From positions 5,580,001-5,644,000 of the forward strand of contig JANJGN010000034.1 in assembly GCA_026770705.1 (NCBI GenBank): a DNA stretch of 64,000 nt, given 5' to 3'. The translations under genes were made by a program, and so were the position numbers. This stretch comes from Isurus oxyrinchus. Lineage: Eukaryota. Position 1 is the stretch's first letter. Every line of letters starts with the position of its first letter. This document shows positions 1,415 through 59,052 of the stretch, piece after piece. The notes beneath the pieces are model-generated. The model was not told the origin of the DNA, ran no database searches, and worked only from the letters and a program-made list of their open reading frames with translations.

Positions 1415-1441
1415 AAGAAAGATTGCTGGAAAAAGATATAG
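1415..1441 (+). CDS. Micro-exon 1, class B, 27 nt: (E)ERLLEKDI
   Basis: ttctcctccctggtacag|AAGAAAGATTGCTGGAAAAAGATATAG|gtaaaa; the first residue assumes the upstream exon ends in G. Confidence 0.8.
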   Translation, partial: KKDCWKKI

Positions 1442-1521
1442 GTAAAACACTCGCAATTTAATTTGAGTTGAGGTTTGAAAGAGTTTTTTTATTTACTGAG
1501 CCGAATGAAGCCCTTTTCTAG

Positions 1522-1541
1522 TCAAAACGATTTTGACAAGG
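1522..1541 (+). pseudogene. Frame-broken class C-like micro-exon (20 nt); pseudo-exon or 1-nt assembly error
   Basis: ccttttctag|TCAAAACGATTTTGACAAGG|gtgaaa, 80 nt after a class B exon; one extra A would give a 21-nt exon reading VKNDFDK. Confidence 0.45.
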
Positions 1542-2290
1542 GTGAAATTATTATTTATTTATGTATTTGATTATGTTAATTGAGTAGATGATCTGTAAAT
1601 TTGTTTCAATGAAGTGGAAGTTCCAGACAACCTTTATTCAAAGTATTCATTGTGGGTACAAAGGATATGCAACGTAAAACCTGAACTGATCATTGGCGCA
1701 ATAAAGGCAAGCTTCAGTTCCAATCTATAATTTGTGCTTTTCCCAAAGACATATACGTCTCTTATGGCCTTCTGAAACTCATTCCTAAGACATTCCTAAG
1801 TTAATTACTTACTGATGGTTTATCTTGCCATCCAATCCCAAGTGAGGGGCAAGGAGGAATACGTCTCAAGTCTACCTCCGGCAAAACATGAATTGGTCCG
1901 TTGCTGTGGACATGATTATGATAAGTACTCCAGTCATCTAACCTCCAGAGCTATACCCTCCCACCCCCCCCACCCCCCCAGAATATATTTATTAATAAAC
2001 TAAGTCATGAGTTTAGAACAAAATTTTTTTTGCACTTCAGGTGGTGAGGATATGGTGATAGCTCCATAGGGGAAGTGGAGGACTAGTTGTGAAAGCTATA
2101 TGAAGAGTGAATCTGATTTTTATTAATGGAAGGACATAATGCAAGCATTTACAGAATGTTAAGAAGGAGGAAGCAAATGCGGACGATAAATATTCTTGGA
2201 CAAGATTGACGTAATATCAGATGGCTATGCCGTTCATTTTTTATATGATTATATGTAAATCATCAAAATATTTCTTTACTTGTTTTACAG

Positions 2291-2326
2291 AGCTCGCGAA
2301 AATGAAACATGCCCTCAATGACGCAG
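2291..2326 (+). CDS. Micro-exon 2, class A, 36 nt: ELAKMKHALNDA
   Basis: tttacttgttttacag|AGCTCGCGAAAATGAAACATGCCCTCAATGACGCAG|gtgaag. Confidence 0.88.
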
Positions 2327-3829
2327 GTGAAGAAGGGCCTTTAAGTGCATTTTATATGGAACACGAGTCATATACATTAGTTCCTTAGTAAATCTGTGTT
2401 AATAATTGTCGAGTTGCAACAGATTTGTCATCCGTTCGCCATCTTAACAAGCACACTTCTGACGACCACATGATGTGAAATAAAGCTTACTGAAAGAAAC
2501 GCTCTGTGTATATATAAGTAAAAGGCGGATGTTTGAAAGCGGCACAGGAGCAGAGAGAAAGTCGATGTGCATAGAAAAAAAAACTGAATGTGATAATCCA
2601 TGCATTTGGATTCATGAGGCACAGAGACGTGCGAGGACGCCACTGTGTCTGCCTGAGTTTTGGTGATTGGTGGGGAGGTTGGGGCGTTGGTTTAATTATA
2701 TGATTGGGATTTGGATAATGGTAGAGTAAAGATATAGAAAGGCAAAATATCCTGAAATTTGTACAGCAGAACTTCCTTGATATGTATTTTTTGTTACAAA
2801 TAAAAAGGAAACATTTCTGTGCCTGGTGCTAGAGAATTCATTTCCGCAGTACAGCAAGTTTCATAGTTGTCTTTGATAAGAACGATAAAGGTATTAGAAG
2901 TATTCTATGTGTCGTAGCGTTGAGGAAAGAAAATTAAAACTAAAGCAGCACTCTGCATTGGAAAAGGGTAGAGTTAAGGAGGCTCAAGGAGATCTGATCA
3001 TGGCAAAATGGAAACAATCATGAGAGCAGAAATAAGTTCCAGTCCAGTTATTGACTGTCAGCATCCGTGAAGAGAGAAACAGACTTACAAGGGTTGTGAC
3101 TTATGACCAGAAATCGAAGAATGTTTTGAAAAAAGCAGAACTAGAACAGATGAAGGGATGATAGTTATGGAAGAAATAACATGAATGGTTGCAAAACGGA
3201 TGCCAACAAGATGGAAAGATCAGAAAAGAAAAGGTAACGGTTCCCGACTGAGGAGGAGAGGGATTATGAATGAGGAAGAGAAGGTGGTGAGAAAAAAAAA
3301 AATCAATGGTGCTCATCAGGAGAATTTTAAAACAGGAAACTGCACCAAACACAGCAATTCAAAAGCGATATTGAAGAGGGGGGAACAATGTGACCAAGGG
3401 AGAATGAAATATAAGTTAGCAGATTTCTTAACCCGGTAATTGTCTACATGTAAATAGCCTACGTTTAGTAAGAAGTGGGGAATGCCTATTAGGAGAAATC
3501 GGTTTCTTGGAGGCGTGGGGCAGTGCTTGGACATTCAATGTGCCAGATGTTCTGGTATCAGGAGCACTGATACAACAAACAAAAGTTGTGTTTTCCATTA
3601 GGAGCAATCGGAGGCCCAGACCAGAGCACAGGTGATGCCTTTGGCCAGGAAGGCCACACGTCCAATAGGCTGATTGGCATCCCCTGGACATGGCGGGTCT
3701 GGCTCTTACACTGATGCAACTGTTAGGGACCTGTATTCGATAAATGATATGGAACCAGAGGTTTAACATATTATGATTGCACTCTGGTATATATATTCAT
3801 CTCAGTGCATAATAGTGTCACTGAACCCA

Positions 3830-4885
3830 GTACACAATGTACATGCACTCACACAACCAAGCAACTCACACAAACCATAGTCAACAACACACACACCCGC
3901 AGCCCTGCCTTATCAACCTATCCTACTAACAAGCCAGAACCAATTTCACCGAAATAGACACCCACTGATTCAAACACCCTTGAAACCCCGAAATTTGATC
4001 AGCTACCAAACTCACCCAGCCAGCTGACCGGACATGGGCTCAATATTTCTGGACTGACACTAATATCTACTGAGCCTGCTAAACTCTGTCCTAAACAAAG
4101 TACCCAATAGGTCCAGGATAAAGGCTTGATCTATGAACAACCACCACACAATCAGAATAACCGTTCTTCCTGAACCCGAGCAGCCTAGGGCTGTGCCCCG
4201 ATGGCTTTATCCTCCAATGGTGTGAATACTTCCCAGATCCGAGTGGAGCTCCCTGTGTCCCGATTAACTCATCACCCACCCTCACCCTTCTCCACACAGG
4301 AATATCACTCCAGACTCAGTTCCTGGAAAGTTACGATTCGAATAGCAACACCTGATCATGACTTAATCGGCCTGAAATCACTCGCTATTCTAGCCTAGGC
4401 AATGATCCCACTTAACTCACCAAAGATCCCTCCCTGGCCCCTCAATCACTCAATCATACACTCACAAAACTGTAAGCATACATATTCCGCCTCCCACCTA
4501 TTCAACCACTAGCCAGGACATGGCTACGCACCACTGCCACGGTTGGAATAAAACCTGAACCACACGTGGCCAGCTGGCGACTTGTCTGAAAAGACCTTCT
4601 GACCCCGCCTCACATAATTATGCCTTGACTATGTCCGAAAGCAGCCCACAGAACCAACAAGATTTGCTCCCTTGCCCGTATCCGGCTACCCTTGTCCCTA
4701 CTTTATCTCTGTTGACTGGCCCTGTGACCCTCCGCTCCAACCATTTCGTTACCTACCCACCAGATTACCTACCAAGCCACACTCACTCACATTCAGCCAC
4801 GCAGTAACACACCGACTCATTCACTGAAAGACATTAGCTCCCATCCATTCACTCACTCACCCAGTCAAATACCCATTCACTGACC
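3830..4885. repeat. C/A-rich low-complexity tract with degenerate ACTC/ACCC motifs
   Basis: Strand-biased composition, e.g. actcactcacattcagccac and cattcactcactcacccagtc; no credible ORF. Confidence 0.45.
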
Positions 4886-6105
4886 CACTGAAATCTTTCG
4901 AGTCCCGTAAAGTTCCGACTGAACATAAAATTTATTGTCATAACTAAATTGATGTGCCTTGCGCGTGTTTCTTCTTTAGTGGTGTCCTGTTGCTCTGCTG
5001 TGCTGAAGCATTGTAGAGGCAATTTCTTGAACAATTTCAAAATGGTGATGCAGAAATATTTGCAGTCAGCAGCGATATACCACGACATACAGCCCCCACG
5101 ATCTATTTCTCCCCGACCTCATTAAACCCCTTCACGGCCCAAGGTTTTCCTGAACATCTTACATCCAGCATTATTGATTAATCATTTCCGAAATTCTTTG
5201 CATCAGTTGTTCATTATAGTTTCCGAGGGGAGCAAATGGAGGTATGGATGGATAAGATCGAGAAAGATGTGTTGCTTCCATGACCTTTTTGCTGCACGCA
5301 TGAGGGCACACATATTTATGCCTGTACCAGAAGCACAGGCAACATAAGGAAGGAGGACTTCTACTGAATGTACCGATTTGTAATTACTCTGAAGCCACAA
5401 TGGTACGGAAGGCAGAAGATTAACATAATTTCTCATGCAGTAGTTGCAGTTGAACGTCCAGTTCTGGGCATCATACATTCGATAGAGAAGCAATGCCTCT
5501 GAGAACATTTGTTGACACTTATGAGGCTTGATCTTTCCATAGCTTACTTTAGTTGACATGTGAGACGAGATCATCTATGCTTGTTTTACGATCAGCAATA
5601 AATATTACCGGGAGAGTAATAGCTATAGAAGAGCATGTCATGGTTTGAATGAACACTTGCTGGAAAATTATTTCTGCTGACAAAATCAAGGGAAGCTGGA
5701 GAACACGTTAAATTAATTGCCAAATGTACCAGGGGAAATAAATAGAGGTGTTGTCAGTGCTTTGCAGCTAACAAGCATGAATTAGAATATATCATTTCAA
5801 AAGTCAATGACCCTCTATTCACTCGGAATTTTTAATGGTGAATTAAGAAGCTACTTCAAGGGAAAGCTGTTTCACTTTGCAGAAAGGCCGGGGAAATGAG
5901 TTTATTAGTCAGATAATAAAAAGTTTGAGCACAAGCTCCTATCGGAGAAATCCAGCTTTCAGTGCTGTACCAGGTTATTAAAATATGCTTATATCAATAT
6001 TTGTATCGTGGATCGTCTCCTACTTATCTTCTTCATGTATGGATCATGCATCTTGCTTGTAAAACAAAATATCATTACATTGACATAGCTTGTATTCTTC
6101 CTTAG

Positions 6106-6132
6106 AAGAAAAGTTAGGCCGATGTGCGACAG
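6106..6132 (+). CDS. Micro-exon 3, class B, 27 nt: EEKLGRCAT
   Basis: ttgtattcttccttag|AAGAAAAGTTAGGCCGATGTGCGACAG|gtaaat. Confidence 0.87.
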
Positions 6133-6230
6133 GTAAATGCAGAGAAATTGATGCCCGTGTTCACTCTTACCTTGTCCCATGGACATGATTATCCTGATTA
6201 ATCATTCTGTGCTGAACTTGATTTTCACAG

Positions 6231-6251
6231 TTAAAGGTGGTTCATCAGATG
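6231..6251 (+). CDS. Micro-exon 4, class C, 21 nt: VKGGSSD
   Basis: ttgattttcacag|TTAAAGGTGGTTCATCAGATG|gtgagt; 98-nt intron from exon 3. Confidence 0.85.
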
Positions 6252-7269
6252 GTGAGTATTATTAAATATACTTCTAGCACTTCAAATAAATTACCAATAT
6301 GGATTACCTTTTCACACTTGACAGTTACATCATAATTTTATAAATAATCACAAGACTAATTCGACTTTAGAAGTTGCGTAAGAGATGGTTCAGGTGAGAA
6401 ATGGTAAAAACAAAAAGCTGTACATTACTTGCATCACTACTTTGAATACACTCGTTGACAACAATATGATGAAAGTGCTAGTAGATTCAAGGATTCAAAT
6501 TTGTTAAAAAAATCGATTACTGAATGATGCCATTCTGTTTTCCTTGTTTTCATCTCGAGGGACCACCTTAAATTTTCAATCAATTCGACGTTCCAATTAT
6601 TAACATACATACATCACTCCACAAGGTTTTTTTTAATATTATTGAAAACAAATTCATTTTACTAATACTATATTTCCCATAACGTGACATTTTAAACCCT
6701 AACATCTGAGAAATTTCAGCAGACTCAGTTATGTTTTCTTCATGCAACGTACAATCTCCCCCATAATTTCCAGATCATTCAGTGCGTTTTTACTTCTCCT
6801 TGCTTCAAAACAAGTACACTACTGCTCTTTGCAAATTCCTTTGCTCCTCATTTTCTTTTCCCTGTTTTCTAGGGGATACAGTTCCTTGAGATTCTTCCAC
6901 TATCATTGACCCATTCTACATATTTGAGCACCACAAGATTGCGGAGACATAGTTCATGAATAGACTTCATTTCCTTCTTGGTCAGTGGCATACATGCCTG
7001 ATTATGGCTGTTGGCCGATCTGACAGTACATTCTATTTCGTTTACTCACCACCTACTGCAGACTCAGTCTAGCAGCTATGCTTTAGGACTTGGACAGTTT
7101 GGACAGTATTAATGCCACCAGGCTTACTCTTGGAGATTGACATCGAAGCCTCCCACCCAGAGGATGTGCTGTACCCTAGCCACCATCAGTGATTCCGCCA
7201 CGTGACTTTCAATGTTGAGGAGTGCTGATTGATTAGCTGAAGGAGGGCTGTATGCCATAATCAGGAGAA

Positions 7270-7545
7270 GGATTCCTTGCACATATTTGACTGGAAATTA
7301 AGAAACTTCATCGGGTCCGCAATCGATGTTGAGACCAGGTTAAGGAAGGCAGATTTTCTTTTCTAAGGGGCAGTAATCAACCAGTTATGCTTTAAAACAT
7401 TCGAGAATCGTTTCAATGCCTTCGAATTCTACATTTCGTTGAAATGAAATTCCACCAACTGACTTGGATTTAAACCGGGAGTTCTGCAGATTATTACTCA
7501 GGATCTCTAGTTCACTAGTCCAGCGAAAATACCAATGTCATTGCT
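7270..7545 (-). mobile_element. Degenerate SINE copy
   Basis: Reverse-complement similarity to the copy at about 62295-62595 (gaaggcagattt, ttcactagtccagcg motifs). Confidence 0.55.
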
Positions 7546-7649
7546 TCTTTATCTCTGCTGTATCTGTGATAACGCACGCACACATAAAATATTCACCCAA
7601 AACACTAAATATTGGGCACATTGTAACATATGTGCAGGTTTAGGCCATC

Positions 7650-9065
7650 AGGAACCTTGAGACTGCTTTACCATTGGACTGGATCAAGGCTGTTCTTCAA
7701 TCTCAATAGCAATTTCCCGTAATGTTCACATGTCCCTTCATGTCATCGGTATCTATAAATCTATCAACGCCTGCGTTCAACACTTTCAATGTCTGGGCAT
7801 CCACAAGCCTCTGTGATAGAGAATTCCAAAACTCACCACCCCGTGACAACAGATGTTCCTCGTGATCTCTGTCCTAAGTGGATTAACTAATTTCCTGGAA
7901 TTCGTGTATCAAAATCCATCTGGTTTAAATATTGCAATGAAGTTTGAAAGACGGTTAAACAGGGGGAATATCATTTGTGCACCAATCATATTGAACACGT
8001 AACAATTCATTGCATCCTTTGCTCAGGAGGACAAAAGTTAGAGCAAAATTCACGACGTGGTTTCGCAAAAGCTATATTAAATTGCAGCATGACGTCAATA
8101 TTCCTGCTGGAAATACCGTTGCAATAAAGGCTAGCAAACCATTTGAATTCCAAATTGTGTGTTGCACCTGCTTGTGACTTACGAACAAGAACAACTAGGT
8201 CTCATTGTTCAAATCAAAACTCCCATTCTCTCTCCATGCAAGATGTAATCTGCATCTTTATTTCTCCTACCAATATGCATAACATTACATTGACACTTGT
8301 TATATTCCATCTGCAAAATTTTTGCCACCATATGTAGCCACTCTAAATCTCCAGAAAGCCTCCTTGCATCCTCTACAAAACTCACATTCCCAGGAAGTTT
8401 ATTGTCAACAGTTGATATGAAAATATTACATTTTGCAGGCGCATCCACATCATTGATATCTGTTGTCAATAGCTTGCATCCAAACATAGTTACATGCAGT
8501 GCTCACAATCAGAGCTGCCAACATGCGATTCTTCCTTTTGTATGTACTCTCCTCCTTCTGTCCGATTATAATTCTGAATCCTCCGATATATTTCCCCCAA
8601 ACCCTTGTGCCACAACTTTGCTTACGAACATCCAGTGTGGGACCTTGTCGAAAGACTCCTGAATACCTAAATGCACCACAAAACTGGATTTCCCTAATAA
8701 AAATTGCCAGCAACGTTCTCAAAATACACGGAGAGGTTTGTTAAACATAATTTCCCGTTCGTTAATCCATGCTTACACTGACAGTTTCACCATTGTTTTT
8801 GAAGTGCCCAGTTTATGAGATGTTTATTATATATTTCAGCATTTTTCTTATTCTAATAAATGGCTGACAGGTCTGTAGTTCCTTCCCCCGCCGCCCCCCC
8901 CCCCCCCACACCCACACACACACACACCCCACACCCCCCCTTGCTTATTTAATAGAGGGAGTACGTTTATTAACTTAATATCTGCAAGCACCTTTCCAGA
9001 ATACATGGAGTTTGAATGATGATCGCCACTGCATTCATTATCTCTAAAGTAACCCCTTTCAACAC
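7650..9065 (-). mobile_element. Decayed CR1-type LINE, RT region to 3' end
   Basis: Minus-strand fragments INVLPLLNK...RNYRPVS and KCQCNVMHIGRRN match CR1 ORF2 motifs; frameshifted. Confidence 0.8.
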
Positions 9066-9494
9066 TCAATCACACTCGTCTCTTCGCTCCCTCTAAATCA
9101 CCGAATAGCCTATCTTGATAAAAATGTGAGATCTTCGGGATTCCTCCAAACAGAGAAAAAAAAATCGAGCCGTTTCAAAGCAACCCTTTGAATCTCAGAC
9201 GCCCAGGAATAACATATTTTCCTAAAGTGGTTAACAGCTTTTCTAACAGATTAACTTGCTAAAAAAAACTTACATTTACCTTTACATTTCCTTAATCAGC
9301 AGAACATAAATCAATAATTTAAACTCCAATTCCGTCATCAAAGAATTTGCCGAGATGCCTTGCTGCAAAGTCGCTCCTCTGCAAGGGTCTCACGTAGCCA
9401 GCTATAATCCTTCTATCATCATTCTGGCAACACAAAAAATCCATTTTGAAATTTAATTACCTCAGACCTCCCTACAATTCACTTACATGAGACG

Positions 9495-10095
9495 TTATTT
9501 ATTTTTCTCGTTCACGGGATGAGAGCGGCGCTGGCTCGGACCATATTTATTGTCGATGGTTAACTAACCTTGCAGATATGATGATCAGACACTTTGAACT
9601 TGCACAATACAGTGCTGATAGGAAGGAAATTCCTGCGCTTTGACCAAGCTAAATTGAACGAACTACGACATACTTACATATCAAGATTGTATAATTTATT
9701 GTGGAATGTACAATTGTTGTGTTGTTCCCATTGCATCTGTTACCCTTGTTCTTCTTGGTGGTAGAGTCGAGCGTTTGTAATTTTTTTTCGACAGAAACCT
9801 GGGATGCTCCTGCATTGCATTTTATAGATGGCACACACTGCTGCAACTGTGTTCCAGAGGTGGAGTTATTGAATGTTTAAGCTGGTGGATGGGGTGCCAC
9901 TCAAGCCGAATGCTTTGTCTTGGATGCTGTCGAGCTTCCTGTGTCTAGTTCCAACAGAAGTCATCCAGCCAAACTGAAGTACTTCCAACAGGCTACTGTC
10001 TTGCGCCTTGCAGATGGTGGGCAGGGTTTGTGAAGTAAGGAGATGAGTCTCTCTCCATCGAATGCCAAACCTATATTCTGTTCTTGTGGTGACAG
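9495..10095 (-). mobile_element. 3' fragment of a second LINE family (CR1/L2 group)
   Basis: Minus ORF LLTSQTLPTICKAQ...KLDSIQDKAFGLSGTPST; related copies near 13350, 41335, 43980 and 54254. Confidence 0.75.
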
Positions 10096-10440
10096 TATGG
10101 AACATCCTTACAATCCTTAATGGGCTCCATTTTGCACTTTTACTCAAAGTTGAATCAAAAAAGGAGCACACAATCCACGATGTGCTGGTTAATATATCTG
10201 CAATTGGCTATTTTGTTAATGCCTCCTTAGGCAATAAGTGCATTATGGCACTTGCAGCCCCACGAGTTTTTGAATTGGTCTTATTGTCAACATGATGAAT
10301 AGGGCCATTTGTCCATCTTGCAATCGTGGTGCAGAAATTTGGAGAATCAAGGTCATCCTGCATGCTTATGTTTGTGTTGATCAGTTCAGCCCTCGTTGTA
10401 CTTCAGACAACATCATGAATGGTCATAATACAGCCAACGT

Positions 10441-10587
10441 CGGGGCCTGGCCTAAGTAGCCAAGTGGTTATGTTACTGGGCTTGTAAACCCAAGAGCAAG
10501 AGTTCAACTCTCACAATGGCAAACTATGAAACAATGTAACTTCATCTGAATAAGGACAGATGGAAACGTGTTTGTACTCGAAAGAGT
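10441..10587 (+). mobile_element. Short tRNA-Thr(UGU)-like SINE or retroposed element with 12-bp target-site duplication
   Basis: A-box-like TAGCCAAGTGG, anticodon-arm-like CTGGGCTTGTAAACCCAAG, B-box-like GAGTTCAACTC; flanked by TACAGCCAACGT at 10429-10440 and 10588-10599. Confidence 0.8.
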
Positions 10588-11419
10588 TACAGCCAACGTT
10601 GGTCCTGAAAATTGCCCATTGTACCTGTAATTATCCTGCAAGTGTGAGGTGTCTCAAACCTTTGAGCAACAGGCTGTTATTACACAATATAAACGTGAGT
10701 GGTATTCTCCACGAACAGGATGCTGCAATCAGGCCACAAAACATGTTCTGCCTATTGCAAATGGAGTTGTTTATAAATCGCTGGCTGATGTCATGTCAGG
10801 CATATAGGTCGTATGTCCCAACCATTGACCAATTCTATCAAACAATATGTCCATTCAGCTATTTCAACAGTGAAAATAATGATCGCGCCCAAGCAGCACA
10901 CACTTGCAACACTCAGAACATAGTCTCCACATCCCGTGGCCTGCTAACAATCCTGATTGCACAAAGAATTACACTCAAAACAAATGCGAGATTGTCAGTT
11001 GTTCTCTCTTTGTGTCTCACTTACGCATGATAGAAGCCAAATTTTTCACGAACAGGGCTCTGTCGTTTGCAGAAGGAAAGAAGAGGTGCCGCTTTTTCAT
11101 ATAAACAAAATCTTATGGACCAGTCATTTCCTGGTTCACAGCCCGTGGCAATGACTTGCCCAATCAGGTTCGATCTCTCCGGTTTGCATTTGAAAAAAAA
11201 TCTGGGCCGCTAACTTCTTAATACTGCATACTCCATGGTGAAAATTCCATGTGCCCAGTCCCCAACTAACCAGCTTTCGTTTCTCATGAAGCATAATTAC
11301 CTCTTTCCACTATAGTTTGGTAGTGCCTTCTGATCTACCCAGATGTACGCATGACAAACACTTTTGATGGTATGTCACGGCTGTTCAGCAATACTCAAAT
11401 TAAATATTAACATTCCAAG

Positions 11420-12010
11420 GGGTGTTAAGAAATAACGGAGGGAAGAGGCATGCAGAAATTTTGGGAAAAGGGCCATGCAGTGGACCTAGCAAAAATGTTC
11501 GTTGAAAAAGCTGTCATATACTCCATGGTCTGGAACACCGTCTGATATGCCATCATATTCTCGTACTTTATAAGTCCAGTATACTGAAACTTAAGTTGTA
11601 AAACGTTCACAAAATGTGCACCAGGAAGGATCTGTTTATCTGATAAATGAAAGGCTGACATGGGATGGTATAGTGCATTGGAGCATAGCGAAAATGTCGG
11701 AAGAATACACATCGAGTACACAATTCCACCCGTTAGGAAGAACAAAGTTAGGATAGGTAAATCTTAGATATTCTTTAATAAATCTAATGACATGTTAAGG
11801 ATAACTAGCTGTTCAACAGAAATTAGTTCACAAATTGAATGCCTGTCCTGTGGAACTTAAAGCTAAATGAAGCCAAATGCATCCAAGTGGATCCTCCACA
11901 AGAAATTGAAGGGCAAAATCACAAAGTAGGTTTGGTTAAGGTTACATTGAAGGGAGATTGTAATGGGTATGTAAATGGCATAGGCTAATTAGGCTGTATA
12001 GCTTTTTTTC
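11420..12010 (+). mobile_element. Highly decayed CR1-type 3' remnant
   Basis: ctttataagtccagtatactgaaac...gttcacaa and tggaactta...gaaattg resemble the CR1 ORF2 C-terminal region seen in other copies in this window. Confidence 0.4.
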
Positions 12011-13349
12011 AGGATTGTAACAAAAACTGTTTACTTTGTTTTTGTGTTTAATATTGCAATGAGTCAGTCAGAATTATCAGTTTTTCAATCTTCTCAGGAA
12101 GATTATTTACGTTTTTATTGCCATGATCAATCTCCTTGATTAACTGAAGAATGCATTCTAGCAAATATTCAAATCAAACGAAGCCACGGAATCATTGTAA
12201 TCCATTAAACACTGCTGTTTCGTCCATATGTTTGTTGTGCCTCATGAATGCCTTTGAACTTGCTGATATCGGGAGTGTTCTGGAGTGTACAAAATTATGA
12301 AATCATCAGAATGAATCTAATTATCTCTACTGAAATAAGACTGACAACACATTTTGGGCACTAGCACCGAAGTACTATATACACCAGTCAAGGGCTGTAC
12401 ATCCCGATATTGCGTTCTTTTGAAGTGGACGGAACTAAATATTGTGCACGAAGCTGAAAAACAGGGAATTTCACTGCATCCATTTTACGGTTCTGCTTAA
12501 AATGATTCTATCGAAGGCAGCTATGTAACTATGTCTATTCGGACTGCTGAAACTTTAAAATCCGTTGCTCTCAATTCCAGGGAGGTAACATTTATTGCAT
12601 ATTTTGATCTGAACAAGTTGAATCGCGTCCTCTTCCAAATGTGTGCAAGAACGCTATTTGGAGACACTGGAGTTGGAATTCGGCAAATAATGGCATTCAT
12701 AAGGGCCGGCGATTCATCATCAGCCAAGTATACATGACGTAATTATTTTCAGTTGACATCTTCCCCCGTAAACAGCATCAGGGGGCCGAATACCTGAATA
12801 TCCTCTTTCTACGTTTAATGACTGACATAGGTATAAATGGCCCTGAACTACTCCATCACGTGTTCAACATATTCACTCGATGCCTTTGAACAATATCTGC
12901 AGGAAGAGCAATTGACGTTTCTTTTTATTTCCGAACAACATTTTTTCAGTTTGACAGATATTAAATTGTACTTTAACATTAAAAACAAAGTTAACTTCTA
13001 TAAATTACAAGCACTGGACAGCTTTGCAGTATCAGGGAGTCACACCCGCATCAGAGGGAACAAGGAGCAAATGAACCACTGGGGAAAGTTATTTATGTAT
13101 CCCGTAATTATCGTTTAAACGTCAATTGTGAACAAACAATATAAGCAAGGCTTCACAGCATTCATTGAAACATGATAAAAATACATACGACCCAACGATT
13201 TCAAAATTCCAAACATAATTCCAGAAATGTTTTAAAGACATCAATGAAAACGACGTGTTCTAAAAGCAGAGAGCACACTCATAGGGATCAAGCGAAAAAT
13301 TGCTTTCCTGATTGAATGTCGCCGGTAGGTTGCTGGATGTAATGGTTGT

Positions 13350-43130: not shown

Positions 43131-43149
43131 ACGTCATAGCGTTTTGAAA

Positions 43150-48054: not shown

Positions 48055-49379
48055 GTAAGTTCACCCCGCCTTCCTAGTTGGATGCAAATCATCCCATTCT
48101 GTTGCTTCAAAGATGTGGACGATCGTTCTGGCTTGTGTCCTGATTGACTTGGTTCTCTCAATGAGTGCATGTATTATGTATATTTCTGCATATAAGGAAA
48201 TAAATGGATAACTAGATCCATAAATAAGTAAATAAATAAATAAGTACGCAAGTCATGATGGCTGCCCTTTCTGATTGTTGGACTATTCTGTGATTATATT
48301 ATTTGCCATATTTCATAACTTATAAAAATAACAACAGGCCAAATGTGTGCCGTTTATTGAAAAGTTGTTTGGAGATCACCGAGACTGCAAAAGACATTCT
48401 TGTGCCTCTTCCTTCCCTTACTGAGGAACTAGGTTGGTCGGCAATTGATTGGTAGGCCGCATACAAAAGCCAGAAAATTATTTTAACCTGTGTGCCCTGT
48501 CACATAAAATCTCGTGGGATATAAGCAAAGTATCATGCCTGCTATCATGTTGTTCACGTCAGTTCTAAACCAAGTGGATAAAAAAAAATGAAATGAAAAC
48601 AACGTGGAAAATTGAGCAACGATTCTCTGTTCTGCAATGTCCCTGGAGTAAAATGTCTAGTAGAGATAGTGTCAAATAATAGGAAGAAGATGTCATTGTT
48701 GTTAAATGAGGAGTACATAATGCACAAAATACCTGGCAAGTAATTCCAGGCTTTTCTTCAAAATTATGCCAAATGTTTTTTTTGAAGTTTTCCTGAAAGA
48801 TTTGCGATGCCTGGTTCACCGCCTCATGCTAAAGGAAGAACCAAGGAGAGAAGCATACTACTAACTAGATTAGTATTGTCACAGTGGTTAATGAGTAAGG
48901 CATTTGTAATGAGTTGCAAATGCAGAGACTTCTGCCTCATGGGTGAAACATCAACAACACAGCTTAGTATAAGCTTGGTGACAGATAGAAAAGAGAACAG
49001 TTGAATTTGTCTTTAGTGCATGCTTTCTACCTCAACATCGCTGCAACAGATTATCCATGCAACTTGAATCTCATAAGTTGTTGCTTCTGCCTGCAGTCAC
49101 TCTAAGGTGCGGCAAAATTCTATGTTCCACATTTAAATATGGGTACCAAAACAGTTCAGTAGTCATTACAACGCGATGAAAGTGGACCTATGGCTGACTA
49201 CAAAGTATTTTATTTTCGTAGCAATTTGATCAGCTGGCCAACTAAGTCCATTAACGAATATGATTGTATGACCCGACCGAAAATAGCCATCTGTTACTTG
49301 TTCCATGTTATTATTCCACAAAGTGATGACCCTAGTTCTGCTAATCACACGTTTTCATTTTTCCCCTTATGCCAAGAGC

Positions 49380-49650
49380 AGCAAATGCTTTAGCCCTTAC
49401 CGTTCTAGTTCACTCTCACTTTGTTGTTTGACCATGGCATATTTCCCAACCTCTCTTTAGCCCCCACATATCGTTCATCATTACTCGTGCTTCAACTGCT
49501 CCACCCTCCGAAACAGTATGAAGGTACCCACATTTCTACTTCTATGTAGCGCTGCAGAAGAGTTATACAGACTCAAAACGTAACTCGGTTTCTCTCTCCA
49601 CAGGTATGGTCAGACCAGTTGAGTTTTTGCAGCATATTATGTTTTTATTT
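49380..49650 (+). repeat. Dispersed repeat fragment (retroelement terminal-repeat-like)
   Basis: gactcaaaacgtaactcggtttctctctccacag...gagtttttgcagcatattatgttttt; a related degenerate segment lies near 20140-20220. Confidence 0.45.
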
Positions 49651-50573
49651 TATTATTGCATAATTGTTGGATAGGAAGTCGAACAATTGTCCGTTGCAAA
49701 TCCAGGCCGTGGTTCTGATGTGGCAAAATTCTAAATTTCTGCATAAGGGTTAAATGGAGGCCTTTGGGAGCACTTCTGCCTGTTAGTCAGAACGTTACAG
49801 ATGCTCCCCCCACTCCAAGACAAAGAAAAGCAAAACTGAGGTGGAAACACCATTGTTCTTCGAATGGAGGACTAAATCTCAGGTTTTTCAGTACTAGCAA
49901 AATATGTTCTTTATTTTTTTCAAGTGAATCTTTACCGACAGCTTGCACGCCATCTATGTTGCAAGCAAAGGTTTGCCGATCATTTGCGATCTTCCCTGGA
50001 ATCAGGCATATTATCTTAATCAAGCAACATCTCTAAAACAGGTTGCGTGTTATTGCTGCTGTACAAAATTTCTGTGTCCCAATCAGATTTCGAGTTTTCA
50101 GCATTGTGAATTCGGTGCTTTGACCTTGCCTTTAAGAAACAGATGGAATTTGCTTTGGGCCTTGCAAGCTTCATCACAGTATTAAGTTGTGTTATTTCAA
50201 ATGGCTCAATTTTTTTCCCATGTAAATGTCCATTTACTTCACACCGGTTCAATTATTTTCCCATATGAGTTTCAAGTGCCATGACAATTACACTGAAATT
50301 AAAGCATTGGCAATCACGAATTAGCTGGATTGCAGATCATCCCTTGACGCACATGCTTTGTACAATAAAAATAAAAGACAAGTGGAGTTGCATTAAAAAC
50401 ACTGACCCAATGTTTTCGAGACGTTGAGGTGCAGGTGGATGCAAATCTCATGGCAAACATTTAATTCACTTAATTTTCGATTGCTCTGACAAAACGTTGA
50501 GTTGCACAGGGTCTTCAAAATTAATTCACTTCCTGTTGCACCACATTTTATCATGTTCGTTTCTTCTTCCCAG

Positions 50574-50600
50574 AAACTGACTTGGTTAAATGCCAGTTGG
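50574..50600 (+). CDS. Micro-exon 21, class B, 27 nt: ETDLVKCQL
   Basis: cgtttcttcttcccag|AAACTGACTTGGTTAAATGCCAGTTGG|gtaagt. Confidence 0.88.
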
Positions 50601-51479
50601 GTAAGTGTGTTTTTACATTCATTTTCTCTCGAAAGTTAAAGCATTATGTGTCAACAGTTCGGGATTCTATGAGTATGCATTATAATTGGGCCATGAAATG
50701 ATGATTTTTAACCTATAACAAGGAACACGAGCTCCAAAAAACGTGTGTAGGAAACCTACTTCATTGGCCGGTTCATCTATTCCCGTGGCCTTTGGAGTAA
50801 CTTGAATCGATCATAATGGTTAAGGGTTCCTTGATATCTTCCGAAAGCAATTGAAAAGAAAACAATGTACATTTCTGATAGTTCTCTTTTTCTTCAAATG
50901 TCACCTTTACTTCTTATTTGCTTGGATTGAGTTCCCGATTTCCACCATACATTGTGCGAGGTGTGTGTACAAAATTCTCCCCTTCGTGCAACAACTTTAT
51001 TCAGATTCAAAACATTCGTTTTGGGCGCCAGTAGCAGCAAATAACTCTGCTTTATTAGATCCATTATCTTCTCTTATTACGCAAAGAAGCACAATTGGAT
51101 CACCTCTCAATATTAAACACGCAAAGGAATGCAAATAAAATGTATTAACACAGTCCATACAGCCAAAGATGAACATTTACGTTAGCTGTGACTATAGATG
51201 AAGAGAAAACAACGTTCTATCCACAAATAAACTATAGTATTAAGTAAAATACTGGTAGAAGATTTAGTAATCACTGGGCTCAACAGCTAGCCATTTCGAA
51301 TAATTCCCCGTGATATCATGATACGATTGAAAGCATGGGGTACTGCAAAGGCCATTGGTCTGGACAGCATTCCGCCAATGCCACTGAGTTCATCTCCTCC
51401 TGAACTAACCGCACACTTATGCAAAGTTTTTCAGTCCAACCACGCAATAGACACTTATAGGTAATTTGGGAGATTGTTA

Positions 51480-52377
51480 AGGGACGCACTATACATACAA
51501 GCAAAAAAGCAGCACGATCCCGACCCGGTCAATTACCGCTACACGAGTCGAATCTCGATCTTTGTTAAATTTGAGAGATATTTCATCGGCAGCGCTATCA
51601 AGCGACACTAACTCGGCAATCACCTCTTGAGTGACGCACAGTTTGGGTTCCGCAAAGACCCTCTCATTTCCTGACCTCATTACATCTTTCATCGAAACAT
51701 GTACTAAAGAGCAGAACTGAATATACATGAGACTGCCTGTTCTTGACATCAAATCATCATTTTACCGAGGGTGGCATCAAGGAGCAACAGAAGAAAAAAA
51801 AATCTCTATTCAATGCTTATCAGAGGAAAACTCTCCACTGGTTGGTGTAATAACTAGCACCAAGGAAAATTATTGTGGATCATGGAGGTAAGTTAGCTTA
51901 GTCCAGGCATATCGAAGCAGGATTCCCTAGGGGTACTTGTGTCTTAGGCCCAAATGATTTCAATTGTCTCGTAAATGACCTTCATTCCATCATAAGATGA
52001 GAACTGTGGATGTTGGCAAGTAATTAAGCAAATTTTATCACCATTCACGAATCCTCAGAAACTTAATTCCCAGCACCCATATGCAGCCAGACGTGGACAT
52101 TATTGAGGCTTGGGATTAACAGTGGCCAGTAACATTCACGTCATGCAAGTGCCATTTATAACCATTTCAAACTATCCAAAACCTAACCAACTCCCCTTGA
52201 CCTCCAATGGCTTTAAGTTCGATGATAACCCCCAGGAGCAACAATATTGGCTGTTTCAACTGACCAGAAACTGAACTGGGCCACCAATTCACATACTGTG
52301 GTAACAAGAGCAGGCCGGAGGCAGGAAGTTCTGTGGAGTGTAACTGAAGCCCTGATTCCAAATGCCGTCCCCCATCT
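51480..52377 (+). mobile_element. Second-family LINE RT region, 5' half (split by a CR1 insertion)
   Basis: ccggtcaattaccgc (P.NYR), cagtttgggttccgc (QFGFR), cttgacatcaaatcatcatttt (LDIK..F), DQKLNW motifs. Confidence 0.8.
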
Positions 52378-54253
52378 GGCACGGAGGTTTACAAAAGCAA
52401 CCTGCAGAGCAAAGAGTGGATATTTGAAAGCTCTGGCTGGTAAAATATGTAAAATCCCAAGATATTCTATATGTTCATCAATGTGAAAAGGGTATTCCAG
52501 GAAAGAGTGCTGTCCATTGGGGACCAAGGGGACAATCTATGGTTGGAGCGAGAGGCCAAAAATCGAATGTAGTACGATTGCTTCATATCCATCTTCACAC
52601 AAGAGAATAAGGATGACTGTATAGAACTCGGGGATTGAGAAAGGAAGTTATTGCACACTTTGAAATAAGGAGTGGCAAGGTATTGGTAGTGTTGGCACGC
52701 TGAAATGAGATCATATCTTCAGATCCGGATTTTGTTGGTCCCAGACTGCTGAGGGAGACCAGGGAGGTTAGCACAGGGTTTTCTGAACCATTTTTAAAAT
52801 TCCCATCTTGCTACGGGGTGATGCCAGAGGACTAGAAAAAAGCTAATGTGGTTCTGCTATTTAAGGATGGTTGTAGCGATAATTTCGCGAATTGCGGACC
52901 GATGAGTCTCACGACATTGGTAGGTAAACTATTGGAAAAAATTCTGAAGGAGAGATTATATTTCCATGTAGAGAGGCAACGTTTGATCAGGGATATTTAG
53001 CATGGCTTTGTCCGAGGGAGGTTATGCCTAAATAATTTTATTGAAAATGTTGAGGAGGTGACCAGTTGTCTAGATGAGGATATTGCATTTGATGTAGCTT
53101 ATATCGATTTCAGCAAATGCTTTGATAAGTTCCATCATGGGAGACTTATAAGGGAGGCAAATGCACATGGAACACGGGGTGTTTTGATAAGGTGGATTCA
53201 AAATTGGCTTAGTTGAAGGAAGCAGAGAGCGTTGGCAGAAGGATGCTTCAGTAGTTGGAAGCGAGTGTCCCGTGGCGTATCAGAGTGATCGGTGTTGGGT
53301 CCCCTATTATTTGTTATTTATATAAACGACAATTATGACTATGTGGGGGGAGAATTAGTAAGTTTGCGGAAGACACAGAGATTGGCGGGGTGGTTAACAG
53401 TTAGGATGAGTGTCCTGGGCTACAGGGAGATATAAATGGGATAGTCAAATTGGCAGCTAAGTGGCAGATGGAATTTAATCCTAAGAAGTGTGAGAAATGT
53501 ACTTTGGGAGGCATAATTTTACAAGGAAATATTCAATGAATGGCAGACACTAGGAGGTTCTGAAGAACAAAGGGAAACTGGCCTGTGTTTCCATAGATCA
53601 CTGATGAAAGAGTGCCATGTTACTGGAGTTTGAAAAAGGCACTTGCCCTTACCCAACGAGGCATAGATAACAAAGGCAGAGAGGTCAGTTTAGAGTTATA
53701 GAACCTTGGTGAGGTCACAGCTGCTGTTCTGGTCGGCATATTATAAGATGGATGTAAATGCAAAATTATAGGGTGGAGAGGAGATTCACCAGTATATTGC
53801 CTGTGAAGAAACATTTAAATTATGAACAGAGGTTGGATTGACTTGTGTTGTTTTCGTTGGAGCAGAGAAGACTAAGGGTTGACCTGATCTATGTGAAGAA
53901 GATTTTAAGTGGCATGGACAAGGTGGATAGGGAGCAACTACTGACCTTATTCTATGGTCGATTAACGAGGGGATGCAAATTCAAATTGAGGGGCAGGAGG
54001 TTTAGGGTGAATGTGGGGGGAAAAAATATTTTATTTGCAGAGAGTGGTGATGGCTTGGAATCCGCAGCCTGGGAGGGTGATGGAAGGGGGTTGCCTCACA
54101 TCCTTTATAAAGTTCCTGGATGACCAGTTGACACGTTATAAAATTCAAGCTTATAGGCCAAATGCCAGTATATGGGATTACGTAGGTCGGCCAGGTGTCC
54201 CTCACATGTCGGTGTAGGGTCGCTGCTGCAATGGATTATTCTGTGATTCTATG
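52378..54253 (+). mobile_element. 5'-truncated CR1 LINE nested in the second-family LINE
   Basis: RT motifs DFSKCFDK, GPLLFVIYIND, SKFAEDT; C-terminal FSLEQRRLRVDLI; 3' tail ATTCTGTG-ATTCTATG; ATCT on both sides. Confidence 0.9.
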
Positions 54254-54745
54254 ATCTACAAGGCAATGCGCAAGATTGTGCTCGATTGCTCCACGCTTTC
54301 TTGGAAGACTGCCACTCCAACAACACGCAAGGAGGTCGGCACCTTCCACTATATATCCTTAAACTAGATTGGCATCACATCCATAACCCTCAACTTTCAC
54401 TCCCACTATCAGGGACAGTGGCTGCAGCGCATTCCAACTGCACGAAGCTCTGCTGTAACTCCCCAATGACCCTTTGGCACCACCTTCCAAAATCATTATT
54501 TCTATTACCCAGATGGAAAACGGCATCAGATACATGTGAAAACCAACACGTGGATGTTCCCCTCGAAGTCACGCGCCACCCTCACCTACCACAGTTTCTC
54601 AGAATATTGGATCTCCTTTCCTAGCAGCAATGCTGGTGTTCCTGCAACAATTAGATTGCAGCAGTTCAAGAAGGCAGGTCACTCTTACCTCCTCAAGGCT
54701 ATTAAGGATGGGCAATAAAAACTTACCTAGCCAAGACGCCCACAA
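54254..54745 (+). mobile_element. Second-family LINE, 3' half
   Basis: Resumes with atctacaaggca (IYKA) and ends in the family tail ttaaggatgggcaataaaa...ctagccaagacgcccac. Confidence 0.8.
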
Positions 54746-56263
54746 ATTAACAAATTAACATGAAACAAATGAGGAACAAATTTAAAAAATATATATATAC
54801 ATGAGTCGGTGTCAGTTCTCTTAACTCAACTAGCGCAAGTTGCACTAAATTATCTAATTCTAGCGCAGCCAGTTCAAAAACGGAAGCCTTATCAGCCTCG
54901 CTTTTTTCTCTTTGAAAGACAGGGCTTGAGGTTGATCTTATAGGACATTTCAATTGCTTAAGGTGTTACGTTAAATATAAAATCGTGATTATATTCCCAG
55001 CTTTGTTAGAAACCGGAGCTATGTTTCATGAATGTATAATATAGATAAGTATAACCCATAAGGTGTACGGGCAGCTGGGGAAGTTTTGAACTTTGCAGCT
55101 TAAGAATGAATAGCCTGGAATTATTTAAAGCTAATATAGACATCCATATCAGACAGGAAGTATCAGAAGTTTCTGTTGAGAACAATAGACATCGAGTGAT
55201 CACCGGAGATGTGAATAAAAAATAGGGATATTAATAGAAATATTAAGCCTAAAGGTCATATTATCACGTTGTTTAACCAATGTGATTCGACATATTTGTG
55301 AAAAATGTCCGAATGAATTCTGTGCAATTTCTGTTTTGTGATCAACTATGCATGTTTCCAAATCCTTACAACTCAAAGGCCTACAGCTTAAAATATTGTT
55401 AAATGTGATTAGTTTCAGAAAAACTATTATTCTTTTGCAATGTTATTTTGGCTTTGCTTGCATTGAGCTCTGCAAAATGAAAATAACGTTAGTGTCCTTG
55501 TTCTGATGGCAATGGTTCGGGAAATATGACAAGCCTAGTAATAGGGCTTGTGGGTCAATTAAATATGACAAACGTTGCATGTGGTGACATGACACACAAT
55601 TCTGAAAATTCTAGACGGGTCACTGCCACATGACTAACGCCTCGTTATCATGTTACTATACAAAAAGTGAAATGAAATATCAAAATAATTGTGATTCTTT
55701 AAACCTTACGCATCTTACATATGATACAACGATCAATATTACATTTATAAGGTGCAGACTTTCAATTTGCAATTGCCCTTGCAGGTCAGCAGTTTTTTTT
55801 TTCTGGATAATCACACGAAATGTGGTTCTTCTTGCAAATGATGAGATTTAACCTTTTTTTGGTGACTTCAATTTAAAACGCAATTCAAAATAGAATTTTA
55901 AAAGTCAAGCAGCCAGCAAGTTTTTTTCTGGTTTTGTGTTGGGTTAAACAATACGAGTACCGCCTGCACATTCATGATTACTTATTCAAATTCTCCTTCT
56001 CTAACTCCGCCTTATGTTATCTATTAAATCGCGATTCAAAACTGCCCGCACCAATTTTGAAAGAAAAATGATGGCTCAAGACAGCTGGCAACAAAAAACA
56101 ATTAGCACACGTGGGCAACACCACAAAATTTGCTGTGCATGAACATTTTCAGCCCTACATCACGTCAAAATGTTAAAGGCATCCTTATTATGCTTTCTTT
56201 TCGTGAACAACCCTAGTTTACACAACGGAAGTTGAGGCATTTCTGCTTGCTATTCTTTGACAG

Positions 56264-56299
56264 AAAATGAAAAACTGAAGCAAGAATTGATAAAGAAAG
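56264..56299 (+). CDS. Micro-exon 22, class A, 36 nt: ENEKLKQELIKK
   Basis: cttgctattctttgacag|AAAATGAAAAACTGAAGCAAGAATTGATAAAGAAAG|gtgaaa. Confidence 0.87.
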
Positions 56300-57118
56300 G
56301 TGAAAAAATGAGAATGATGTGGATGGTTAACTTCAAGACTTGAGCCATATCAGTTTCCTTTCTGCAGAAAAGTGGCACGTACTAAAATATGCAGAGTGTA
56401 AATTATTTGTAATGTTCAATACTGCTTTTTGTCGCAAACTGATTGATTGCTAATTAAACATATTAATAGAAATCAATAGTAGATATACTGTATTGAATAG
56501 AAGTTATACAAAAGTCTAATTTTTTTTTATTTTGACCTATCATGAAGCGAACACTTGTTTTTAATGTTTTTCACTCGCTTTGTCACAAACGATGCTATGG
56601 ATACAACGAGACTCTACAATGTTCTCCTCTCTGGAAAACCTCCTGCACTGGCAATATGATTGTGTAAACCAATAGCTCTGCTGCATAAATCCTAACTGAA
56701 GTCAAATTTTAATCATTCTGATCGCCTGTGCAAAGATGTGAAAGATGATTCAATGCTACAAATCTACAAGATATAAGGATCTCTAATATACTGGCATTAT
56801 ATATATACAGATATTCATTCCACTGCCTGGGCTCTCTGCTTTGCAATTATTTCCCTTAACTTCCCCGCATTCCCCACTCTTGCTCATTCTTGATACCCTT
56901 AAGTCTACATCTGTGATCAATATTTTTCTTAACAGACATGGCAATATGCTGTTATCAGAAAATATTTATTTCATGCCACTCCTGTGAAATGTACTTGAGT
57001 GCAAATTTTGCTAAAAGTCGCAGTAAAGTTAGAGTAAAAGAAAAAAAAAAATATTTTATTAGTATTTCATTAGGAAATAACACGATTTAACATTTTCGAT
57101 ATGTTTTCACATATTCAG

Positions 57119-57145
57119 GCGTGGATTTGAAAGACGTGTTCCCAG
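57119..57145 (+). CDS. Micro-exon 23, class B, 27 nt: GVDLKDVFP
   Basis: gttttcacatattcag|GCGTGGATTTGAAAGACGTGTTCCCAG|gtaatg. Confidence 0.8.
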
Positions 57146-57299
57146 GTAATGGATCAACTAATAAATGATTATAATTTGGCCAAAAGAAAAGAGCATCACT
57201 GTAATTGCTACTCGACAATCATAGAATAGTAAAATGACGCAGAAGGGAAAGGGTTTTGTAAGCGTATATGCAGGTTACCAAGGAAAATGATATGAAGGC

Positions 57300-58760
57300 C
57301 TTGCAGGGCATCTATTTTCGTAATGATACTCAGGGTGTGACAGGGAGGGCAGAGTGTACAAACATAGGAAACAGCAGCATGGTATTCTGAGTAAAGTAAA
57401 TGAATTAACAACACAAGTAGAGATAAACGATTATCAAAGTATACATATTGCAGAGATATGGTTACAAGGCGATCATAGGTAGGAGGTAAATAGTCAGGGG
57501 TTATGTGACTATTTTAAAGGGCAGGCAGGAAAAAAAAGTGCTGTGTGGTACCTTTGTTAGTAAAATTTGGAATAAGTCCCAAAGCAAGAAACGCTCCTGG
57601 GACGGAAAATGTGGAATCCATACGAGTGAATGTAAGAAATAACAGGTTGAAGAAGACACTCTTGGGGGAACTCTATAGGCCCCTGTCAGTGGGCGTAGTA
57701 TAGTCCAGAGGACAAATGAGGAGATAATGATTTGAGTAATATGTTGCGAATTCAACCAGGGATCAGGCTATTTTAGATCTGATAATGTTTAATGAGGCAG
57801 CAAGGTTAATACATGATCTCAGTGTCAAGGATATCGTAGGAAAGTGTGAACATAATACTTTAGGATTTAACGTTCAATTGGAGAGTGAGAAACCTGGGTT
57901 GGAAAATAAATGTGCACATCTTAAATAAGGGTAATAACAAATTAATGAGGGCACAATTGACTCCAGTGGACTTAGATTCATTGTAACAGAAATGAAGTCT
58001 GCTGAACAATAACAGACTTTTAAGAAAATAGTTCATGACTCTCCAAAAATATATCTATACCAGTTTGGAAGACGTGTTCAAGGAAGGGGATGACCCAACC
58101 ATGGTTCAACAGCAAATTTAAGGACAGGAACAAATTGAAATAGAAGAAAACATATAATTTAGCTAAATTTGGAGGTAATCAGAGGATTGGGAAAGTTTCA
58201 AAAGAAACTACAAAATAGGTCTAGAACAACAATAAAGAGGGATAAAATTAACATTAAGGGTAAACTAGCAAATAATATAAAAACAGCGTGTAAGGGTGTA
58301 TTGAAATATATGTATATATATAGAGGGAGAGAGTGGCCTAATAGAGCATAAGCACCTTAGAGAATGAAGCAATAGCAAAGATTATGGGGGACCAGGAAAT
58401 GGCAGATGAGTTCAATAAATCCTTTGCTTCAGCCTTCTTAGTAGTAGAGGCGAATGGTATTCCACAAATTAATAAATTTTCAAGGGCGAATAAGTGTGTG
58501 GGGTTGAGGGGGTGGGGGGGGGGGGTGCGGGCGGGGAGTGGTGGAGGAGATTAATGCAATAACTAGCATAAGAGACAAAGTTCTGGGCAAACGAATGGGT
58601 CTAAAGGCTAATAATTCCCTTTGGCCTGATGGGTTTCATCCTAGCATATTGGAGGTAGTAGATACAGAGATATTGGAAGCAATTGTAATAATCTCCGAAT
58701 AATCTTTTGCCTCCTGTAAAGTCCCAAAGGGTTGCAGAACGGCCAGTGTAATAATCCGTT
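57300..58760 (+). mobile_element. Decayed CR1-type LINE, endonuclease/linker region
   Basis: attgcagagatatggttacaa (I.E.WL), ctctataggccccct-like YRPP, attttagatctgata (ILDL), ggcctgatgggtttcatcctagc (GPDG.HP). Confidence 0.75.
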
Positions 58761-59025
58761 TTCCTTTTCTTTGCGAATAGACCCTGCCCTCCCCTTCTCC
58801 TCTCTCCAAAATGCCAGCCTCTACAACAACCTCCCTTTTGAAGGATTTTTTAAGCAACCTCTTGGAGCAATATGTCACTGAGTTCATATTACAATATATT
58901 GTCCGCTGTCAATGTCAGTTTCATGGCGCCATGGTGCCCTGTGCTCGGTTGTTATATAGCCTGAATACCAGCAGTTATGGCTTTGCTAAATGGAAAATGC
59001 AACAATGTAATAATTTTGTCTTCAG

Positions 59026-59052
59026 ATCGACAGATAGGAGATACAGAATCAA
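59026..59052 (+). CDS. Micro-exon 24, 27 nt: DRQIGDTES
   Basis: taattttgtcttcag|ATCGACAGATAGGAGATACAGAATCAA|gtaacc; weak donor. Confidence 0.6.

Follow-up and report, generated by a model that had tools for sequence, protein, structure and literature searches.

The 64,000-nucleotide (nt) stretch analyzed here (the window) was taken from the forward strand of contig JANJGN010000034.1 of Isurus oxyrinchus (C34:5580001-5644000; genome, 4.98 Gb) and contains 24 micro-exons encoding parts of a coiled-coil rod. Plain positions are window coordinates (1-64000), and C34 positions are contig coordinates. The exons, bounded by AG and GT, were rebuilt on the plus strand from a scan and a reading of the window. 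They are distributed over 1415..59052 and sum to 702 nt, with thirteen exons of 27 nt, eight of 36 nt, and single exons of 21, 18, and 24 nt. All 24 are of phase 1-1, i.e., each intron splits a codon between its first and second bases, and the joined chain contains no stop in the phase-1 frame versus 21 and 24 stops in the other two frames. In a classification of our own, A exons encode 12 residues with hydrophobic residues at 2, 5, and 9, and B exons encode 9 residues with a hydrophobic residue at 4. The exons are as follows:

Micro-exon 1: 1415..1441, plus strand, 27 nt, B type, phase 1-1
Micro-exon 2: 2291..2326, plus strand, 36 nt, A type
Micro-exon 3: 6106..6132, plus strand, 27 nt, Cys-bearing
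Micro-exon 4: 6231..6251, plus strand, 21 nt, polar linker
Micro-exon 5: 18206..18241, plus strand, 36 nt
Micro-exon 6: 18795..18821, plus strand, 27 nt
Micro-exon 7: 20889..20906, plus strand, 18 nt, polar linker
Micro-exon 8: 22914..22949, plus strand, 36 nt
Micro-exon 9: 24066..24089, plus strand, 24 nt, polar linker
Micro-exon 10: 25086..25121, plus strand, 36 nt
Micro-exon 11: 26423..26449, plus strand, 27 nt, Pro-containing helix break
Micro-exon 12: 31680..31706, plus strand, 27 nt, the sole T-ending exon of the 24, T kept in the paralogue
Micro-exon 13: 34021..34047, plus strand, 27 nt, begins with CC, giving a sense codon at the junction with exon 12
Micro-exon 14: 35022..35057, plus strand, 36 nt
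Micro-exon 15: 35820..35846, plus strand, 27 nt, Pro-containing helix break
Micro-exon 16: 38727..38753, plus strand, 27 nt
Micro-exon 17: 45912..45947, plus strand, 36 nt
Micro-exon 18: 46879..46905, plus strand, 27 nt
Micro-exon 19: 46998..47024, plus strand, 27 nt, C-ending
Micro-exon 20: 47365..47400, plus strand, 36 nt
Micro-exon 21: 50574..50600, plus strand, 27 nt
Micro-exon 22: 56264..56299, plus strand, 36 nt
Micro-exon 23: 57119..57145, plus strand, 27 nt
Micro-exon 24: 59026..59052, plus strand, 27 nt, A-ending, outside the compared paralogous stretch

No convincing additional exon was found among 90 window candidates; the candidates at 11343 and 30326 were dropped, as they were absent from the paralogue-conserved candidates. 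No RNA record was listed for window positions 45700-47600.

A paralogous stretch is located about 1.09 Mb downstream, and 60 kb of it, covering exons 1-23, were compared with the window. Length, AG, GT, and open frame were kept in all 23 exons inside this stretch, and the exons were 89% identical to the paralogue (76 mismatches in 675 nt), versus about 79% in long aligned blocks. As a background, 2082 of 3133 AG (66%) and 1748 of 2909 GT dinucleotides (60%) were kept. Because exon identity, length, splice sites, and frame are conserved above background, the comparison indicates that the micro-exons are real and under purifying selection relative to the paralogous copy. Internal in-frame AG acceptors at 6237, 25095, and 35028 (exons 4, 10, and 14) were also kept in the paralogue, and their use could trim 2-3 residues. 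Two introns are very short, 6133-6230 (98 nt) and 46906-46997 (92 nt), and separate paired 27/21-nt exons, a spacing that recurs in units upstream of the window.

The whole window (1..64000, plus strand) is internal to a much longer micro-exon array on the plus strand of C34, which spans about 1.53 Mb, from about 4.87 Mb, some 710 kb upstream, to a B30.2 exon at 6395819, some 750 kb downstream. Exons 1 and 24, in the numbering of the initial annotation of this DNA, are internal to this array rather than gene ends. Micro-exons occur throughout the 754 kb read at 5.12-5.874 Mb, where no 50-kb bin is without a call, and sampling upstream of 5.12 Mb traced them to about 4.87 Mb. About 58% of the span was read, and extrapolation led to a total of 318-477 micro-exons; the length of the rod is roughly estimated at 3,000-4,500 residues. 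An exon model that took no account of the terminal bases of an exon yielded 162 calls in the 754 contiguous kb versus 5 in a minus-strand control, and recovered 16 of the 24 window exons. A second scan, likewise of 754 contiguous kb and using only splice signals, found 115 candidates of 21, 27, or 36 nt on the plus strand versus 16 on the minus strand. Stops were present in 5 of the 115 versus 5 of the 16, a contrast that is partly circular because the model had been trained on stop-free exons. A pattern of A exons had 119 matches (control, 12), and 55 of the 100 listed were found at C34:2.76-7.03 Mb. Exon type varies along the array, with a run of 21-nt exons at 5.16-5.30 Mb; the four matches to a 21-nt exon pattern were all located at 5.24-5.26 Mb. 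At C34:5.555-5.582 Mb, a stretch that extends to exon 1 of the window, about three copies are present of a unit of four exons (36+27+27+27 nt); it encodes 39 residues, which is not a multiple of seven.

The terminal exon at C34:6395819 is of phase 1 and encodes a full B30.2 domain of 172 residues (Pfam SPRY, 1.8e-13; BTN3A1 B30.2, 7e-20, the best solved match; TRIM58, 4e-19). A C-type lectin or fibrinogen-type head, as considered for the array, was thereby ruled out; the A+B unit measures 63 nt, as in CD23. Among the 150 of 455 candidates that were scored and listed in a search for B30.2 exons, those on C34 lie at 2.71, 3.47, 4.82, 6.40, and 7.50 Mb, and none was listed between 4.82 and 6.40 Mb. 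Four of the five listed contig sets of the same species, compared with the region around the B30.2 exon, matched only repeats there, left the exon uncovered, and were uninformative.

A front end with immunoglobulin (Ig) and membrane exons, or with RING and B-box, was considered, and none was found in the scans of the 5' regions. The motif-scanned array stretches contained no convincing Ig, RING, or B-box frame. No Ig family was detected in 122 plus-strand frames of the paralogue's 5' region, 49 frames of C34:4.842-4.888 Mb, and 5 relatives, and neither RING nor B-box was found ahead of the array, ahead of that of the paralogue, or in the relatives scanned. A transmembrane candidate was likewise missing: neither scanned 5' region contained a hydrophobic phase 1-1 exon, and none was evident in the relatives. 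Within the 5' region of the gene, 4.817-4.842 Mb were unread, of which 4.828-4.842 Mb are collinear with read paralogue sequence. An in-frame ATG in the first micro-exon of the paralogue was rejected as a start, as the matching exon of the window's gene sits mid-array.

Together, an A and a B exon encode three heptads. Cysteines, which make up 4.4% of the rod residues, are found at fixed core positions; position A5 is Cys in 39% and B7 in 26%. However, the rod is interrupted by polar and Pro-containing linker exons, and B exons often adjoin B exons. It is segmented and not a strict alternation of A and B. The initial annotation had argued that skipping an A or a B exon alone would break the heptad register, while joint skipping would keep it. 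This arithmetic is right, but in the chain of all exons the register already shifts at 6 of 18 steps, and the segmented nature of the rod weakens the case for obligatory co-skipping.

The closest B30.2 domains are found in Chiloscyllium, Leucoraja, Scyliorhinus, Callorhinchus, Narcine, and Cetorhinus. As members reach from chimaera to rays and sharks, the family is old. A tree was calculated from rows chosen by similarity and labelled by motif (11 family domains, each gene being represented by a single isoform; the 17 Ig-labelled rows in full; 22 of the 34 rows labelled RING/B-box; rows without a label excluded). The 11 family domains were placed on one side of a 100/100 branch versus the 17 Ig-bearing and 22 RING/B-box rows. 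SPRY was the only domain in 5 of 5 full models of relatives scanned, with no RING, B-box, or Ig. The database names of the relatives (TRIM39/58/69-like, zinc-binding protein A33-like) look like mislabels driven by the B30.2 domain. In a catshark model (P0166, 945 aa), about 770 residues of a similar rod are joined to the family B30.2 domain, and the window peptide aligned to it with a score of 164 (shuffles, 107 +/- 12, maximum 143, n=300). The database models of the relatives span 202-945 aa, the bamboo shark record consisting of the B30.2 exon alone. No longer relative was present among the 534 candidates of a search with the single domain, and a profile search gave 14 matches, one of them a family member. 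An Atlas search with the skate member P0152 led to SPRY-only chordate clusters named butyrophilin-like or DDB_G0290503-like (one of 1579 aa, score 0.84); as a lead only, these hint that other fishes have long B30.2 rods of a parallel design.

In the skate member P0152, the heptads come directly after a hydrophobic, signal-like segment at the start of the protein. Ahead of the paralogue's array, a signal-like exon of 16 codons and phase 1 was found, the two copies of which are 91% identical versus 81% around them (coding exon at L049:1338-1477, second copy at C34:7.5107 Mb; a short non-coding exon candidate lies upstream). Genome matches were restricted to these two copies, so that no homologue was found near the start of the window's gene, and no signal exon was found for that gene in 4.842-4.888 Mb.

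The initial annotation had also interpreted the exon ends as an architecture permitting near-unrestricted combinatorial skipping. Its counts were confirmed by the rebuilt exons: the last base is G in 21 of 24 exons, T in exon 12, C in exon 19, and A in exon 24. Any subset of exons keeps the frame, as all are of phase 1-1, and exon 12 is indeed the only source of junction stops, which arise in 6 of 276 ordered pairs, all joining exon 12 to exons 17-22. In random subsets at 50% inclusion, a junction stop occurred in 3.1% of the draws. The six stop pairs are no fewer than chance would allow: when the exon starts were retained, simulated sets had six or fewer stop pairs in 33% of the draws, and in 75% when open junctions were demanded for neighbours only. 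Generic donors carry G at position -1 with a frequency of 0.78-0.85, at which at least 21 G-ends among 24 exons have a probability of 0.19-0.51 (0.12 at a frequency of 0.75). The exon side of the donor consensus is given as AG in the available text of PMC1626468. The 162 called exons of the 754 kb end with G in 141 cases, A in 13, T in 6, and C in 2, and 102 begin with a pair that forms a stop after T. The next exon was compatible for four of the six T-ending calls; one would yield a stop (a near-threshold 30-nt call), and one had no called neighbour. The G-ends are thus an ordinary by-product of splice signals, phase symmetry is generic, and an open in-order frame on its own renders the stop-poverty likely. 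Furthermore, the paralogue retains the terminal T of exon 12 and the initial CC of exon 13. The pattern agrees with selection acting on in-order junctions and disfavours selection for free skipping, which should have eliminated the T. A diversification system, as deduced from the architecture, is thus not supported.

Whether skipping nevertheless occurs was approached via the isoforms of the relatives, which are database models with underlying RNA evidence that is not visible. Models of Callorhinchus, Narcine, and Scyliorhinus lack one internal block of 9 residues, those of Narcine also differ by one 6-residue block, and an older Callorhinchus model is also without a 7-residue block. Other differences are N-terminal, and 1-2 internal variants were seen per gene. 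The models fit skipping of single phase-1 micro-exons rather than of A+B pairs. Skipping of heptad exons has been reported in macaque BTN3A, according to the part of PMC6790196 available. The proposal that the array is a splice-based diversification system, in which combinatorial skipping, with A and B leaving together, tunes rod length, register, and cysteine content, has in its favour the frame-keeping of every subset, the rarity of stops in half-subsets, and the single blocks absent from models of relatives. As a lead only, the SPRY-only chordate clusters carry isoform-numbered names, and schistosome micro-exon genes operate in this way in the accessible sections of 10.1101/2023.06.21.545858. 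However, G-ends and stop-poverty equal the generic expectation, conserved T-ending exons persist, annotated skips comprise 9 or 6 residues (B-sized at most) instead of 21, variants are few, and the register is shifted even without skipping. We therefore regard the proposal as improbable. Combinatorial splicing of the window's gene would be possible, and a secreted, disulphide-linked rod of 300-480 exons with a B30.2 head, of which regulated skipping yields versions differing in length and cross-linking, is a similarly long shot.

At the DNA level, changes of rod length are, by contrast, demonstrable from the sequence comparison, splice-level diversification being only permitted. The paralogue copies the micro-exon unit collinearly, but the offset to it steps from 1.606 to 1.365, 1.300, and 1.087 Mb, with drops of 241 kb and about 210 kb, which indicates that the paralogues differ by exon blocks of more than 200 kb. 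At C34:5.89-6.14 Mb, ten blocks are repeated at a spacing of 25.6-29.7 kb. Symmetric exons favour internal duplication, and symmetry also eases skipping, as stated in the portion of PMC3632108 available. The cluster extends across roughly 4.8 Mb of C34 and comprises about five genes of very large size, arranged head-to-head with two genes on the minus strand (C34:2.7-3.93 Mb) and three on the plus strand (4.39-7.5 Mb). A junction of a tandem duplication lies at L050:3485-3690 (C34:6.4335 Mb). As its flanks match different regions, 7.516-7.520 Mb before and 4.828 Mb onward after the junction, the 5' end of the next gene has probably become joined to the paralogue, making it a chimera.

Together, these findings make it reasonably probable, though far from certain, that the window is the middle of one cartilaginous-fish gene of about 1.5 Mb, encoding a Cys-containing coiled-coil rod by micro-exons and a single C-terminal B30.2 domain. 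The phase-1 exons of 21, 27, and 36 nt would build a segmented rod of thousands of residues, and a PRY-SPRY-type B30.2 domain would cap its C-terminus. Beyond the exons, their frame and selection, the terminal B30.2 exon, the paralogues, and the family clade, all of which were observed, we infer a growth route and a splicing order. Because every exon is of phase 1-1, DNA-level duplication or deletion of exons or exon blocks leaves the frame intact, and the rod would have grown, and the paralogues diverged, in this frame-neutral way. Splicing would mostly proceed in order, with occasional loss of a single exon being tolerated. By analogy with stalk-and-head proteins such as collectins, the protein might be secreted and form disulphide-linked parallel oligomers, with the rod as a spacer or fibre and clustered B30.2 heads binding a ligand multivalently; the chances of this are about even, in view of the six of eight relatives without a signal-like start. 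Several observations weigh against the one-gene interpretation or parts of it. The search for the first exon of the gene itself was negative (4.817-4.828 Mb unread), and the unread 42% or so of the span, chiefly 5.874-6.34 Mb and the greater part of 4.89-5.12 Mb, leaves internal gene ends conceivable. Signal-like starts among the eight relatives amount to one clear and one doubtful case. The signal-like exon, at 6.42 Mb, originates downstream in the duplication and is only a candidate for being spliced to the array. In addition, the argument from adjacent junctions rests on few T-ending cases, and the B30.2 tree does not pick between a butyrophilin and a TRIM origin.

The same gene could instead have a cytosolic product, in which a long coiled coil acts as a scaffold and dimerises the B30.2 domains, comparable to the "zipper protein" tail of chicken BG or to a RING-less TRIM derivative. 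In BTN and TRIM proteins, the B30.2 domain is cytosolic. The scan of 4.842-4.888 Mb gave no signal, Ig, or membrane exon for the gene, and most relatives begin without a hydrophobic segment, although their models may be 5'-truncated. The BG tail known as the zipper protein is described as soluble (PMC4046983). The signal-like start of the skate protein, the conserved signal-like exon in the cluster, and the regular core cysteines argue against a cytosolic location, which we consider possible but the less favoured option. A further alternative is that the 1.5 Mb are divided among several transcription units of shorter length, or have alternative 3' ends, of which only the last reaches the B30.2 exon. 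BG genes and BTN3A2 are without B30.2, and the unread part of the span, the variation of exon type with its 21-nt run, and the short models of the relatives would agree with this explanation. It is, however, at odds with the presence of micro-exons in each 50-kb bin read, the collinear copy in the paralogue, and the scanned stretches without a convincing Ig, RING, or B-box frame, and is thus rather unlikely.

Comparison with known systems indicates that the window's gene fails membership of BTN, BG, and TRIM on its front-end domains. As in the butyrophilins (BTN/BTNL/ERMAP), very short heptad exons lead to a single terminal B30.2 exon, but no IgV/IgC or membrane exon was found, the heptad exons number hundreds and not few, and the B30.2 domain belongs to a clade of its own. 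TRIM proteins with B30.2 share the order of coiled coil and B30.2, whereas the family is without RING and B-box in five full models and its coiled coil is encoded by micro-exons. Enterophilins combine heptads and B30.2 without Ig, and ohanin/vespryn a signal peptide and B30.2; both are far shorter than the shark gene product. Chicken BG genes encode a long coiled-coil tail by 13-36 exons of 21/24 nt per gene, show some alternative splicing, and form an expanding and contracting tandem cluster, and in the available part of the description they have IgV and a membrane segment and no B30.2 (PMC4046983). The likeness, which concerns only the way of working, is a tail of many symmetric heptad micro-exons; the window's gene has about tenfold more exons, mostly of 27/36 nt. 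Schistosome micro-exon genes (MEG) have short exons, mostly of 3n nt, long introns, a signal peptide, and alternative splicing of central exons, again for the sections available (10.1101/2023.06.21.545858). They resemble the shark gene in layout only, i.e., mostly symmetric 3n micro-exons, with no homology; MEG have 10-20 exons and, in the same sections, verified isoform sets, whereas the shark exons encode coiled-coil repeats plus a globular head. The family is apparently a giant form, previously undescribed, of the heptad-micro-exon design seen in butyrophilins and BG: no description of a micro-exon B30.2 family was found in a literature search, with most subscription journals and supplements outside its scope.

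While G-ending symmetric exons that permit skipping are ordinary, the giant micro-exon B30.2 family beneath them is not. Its coding sequence consists almost entirely of 21-36-nt exons, most of which escape gene predictors, and its members are labelled as TRIM ligases in databases despite being without RING and B-box. If one transcript joins the array, the gene would be among the most exon-rich of vertebrates, with an exon count rivalling that of titin (about 363), and a test bed for in-order splicing of hundreds of micro-exons. If secreted, the product would represent an additional class of long-stalk extracellular B30.2 proteins. If regulated skipping were also true, vertebrates would possess a counterpart of the schistosome micro-exon genes, in which B30.2 serves as an extracellular recognition module.

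Outside C34, one cluster at C21:83-118 Mb holds 138 of the 150 listed B30.2 matches. It contains two A-type micro-exon matches at 89.81 Mb and the two best non-C34 domains at 89.72 and 91.35 Mb, which suggests further family members on C21. Fragments with weak matches to rhodopsin-family G-protein-coupled receptors at L048:5857-6582 are probably a pseudogene, and remnants of a long terminal repeat retrotransposon are located at L047:9516-L048:1892. Within the window, the introns at about 52400-54200 and 57300-58700 contain, as judged by eye, degenerate remnants resembling long interspersed nuclear elements, a run of G is present at 30850-30909, and AAT/AAG microsatellites are found at 60206-60297.

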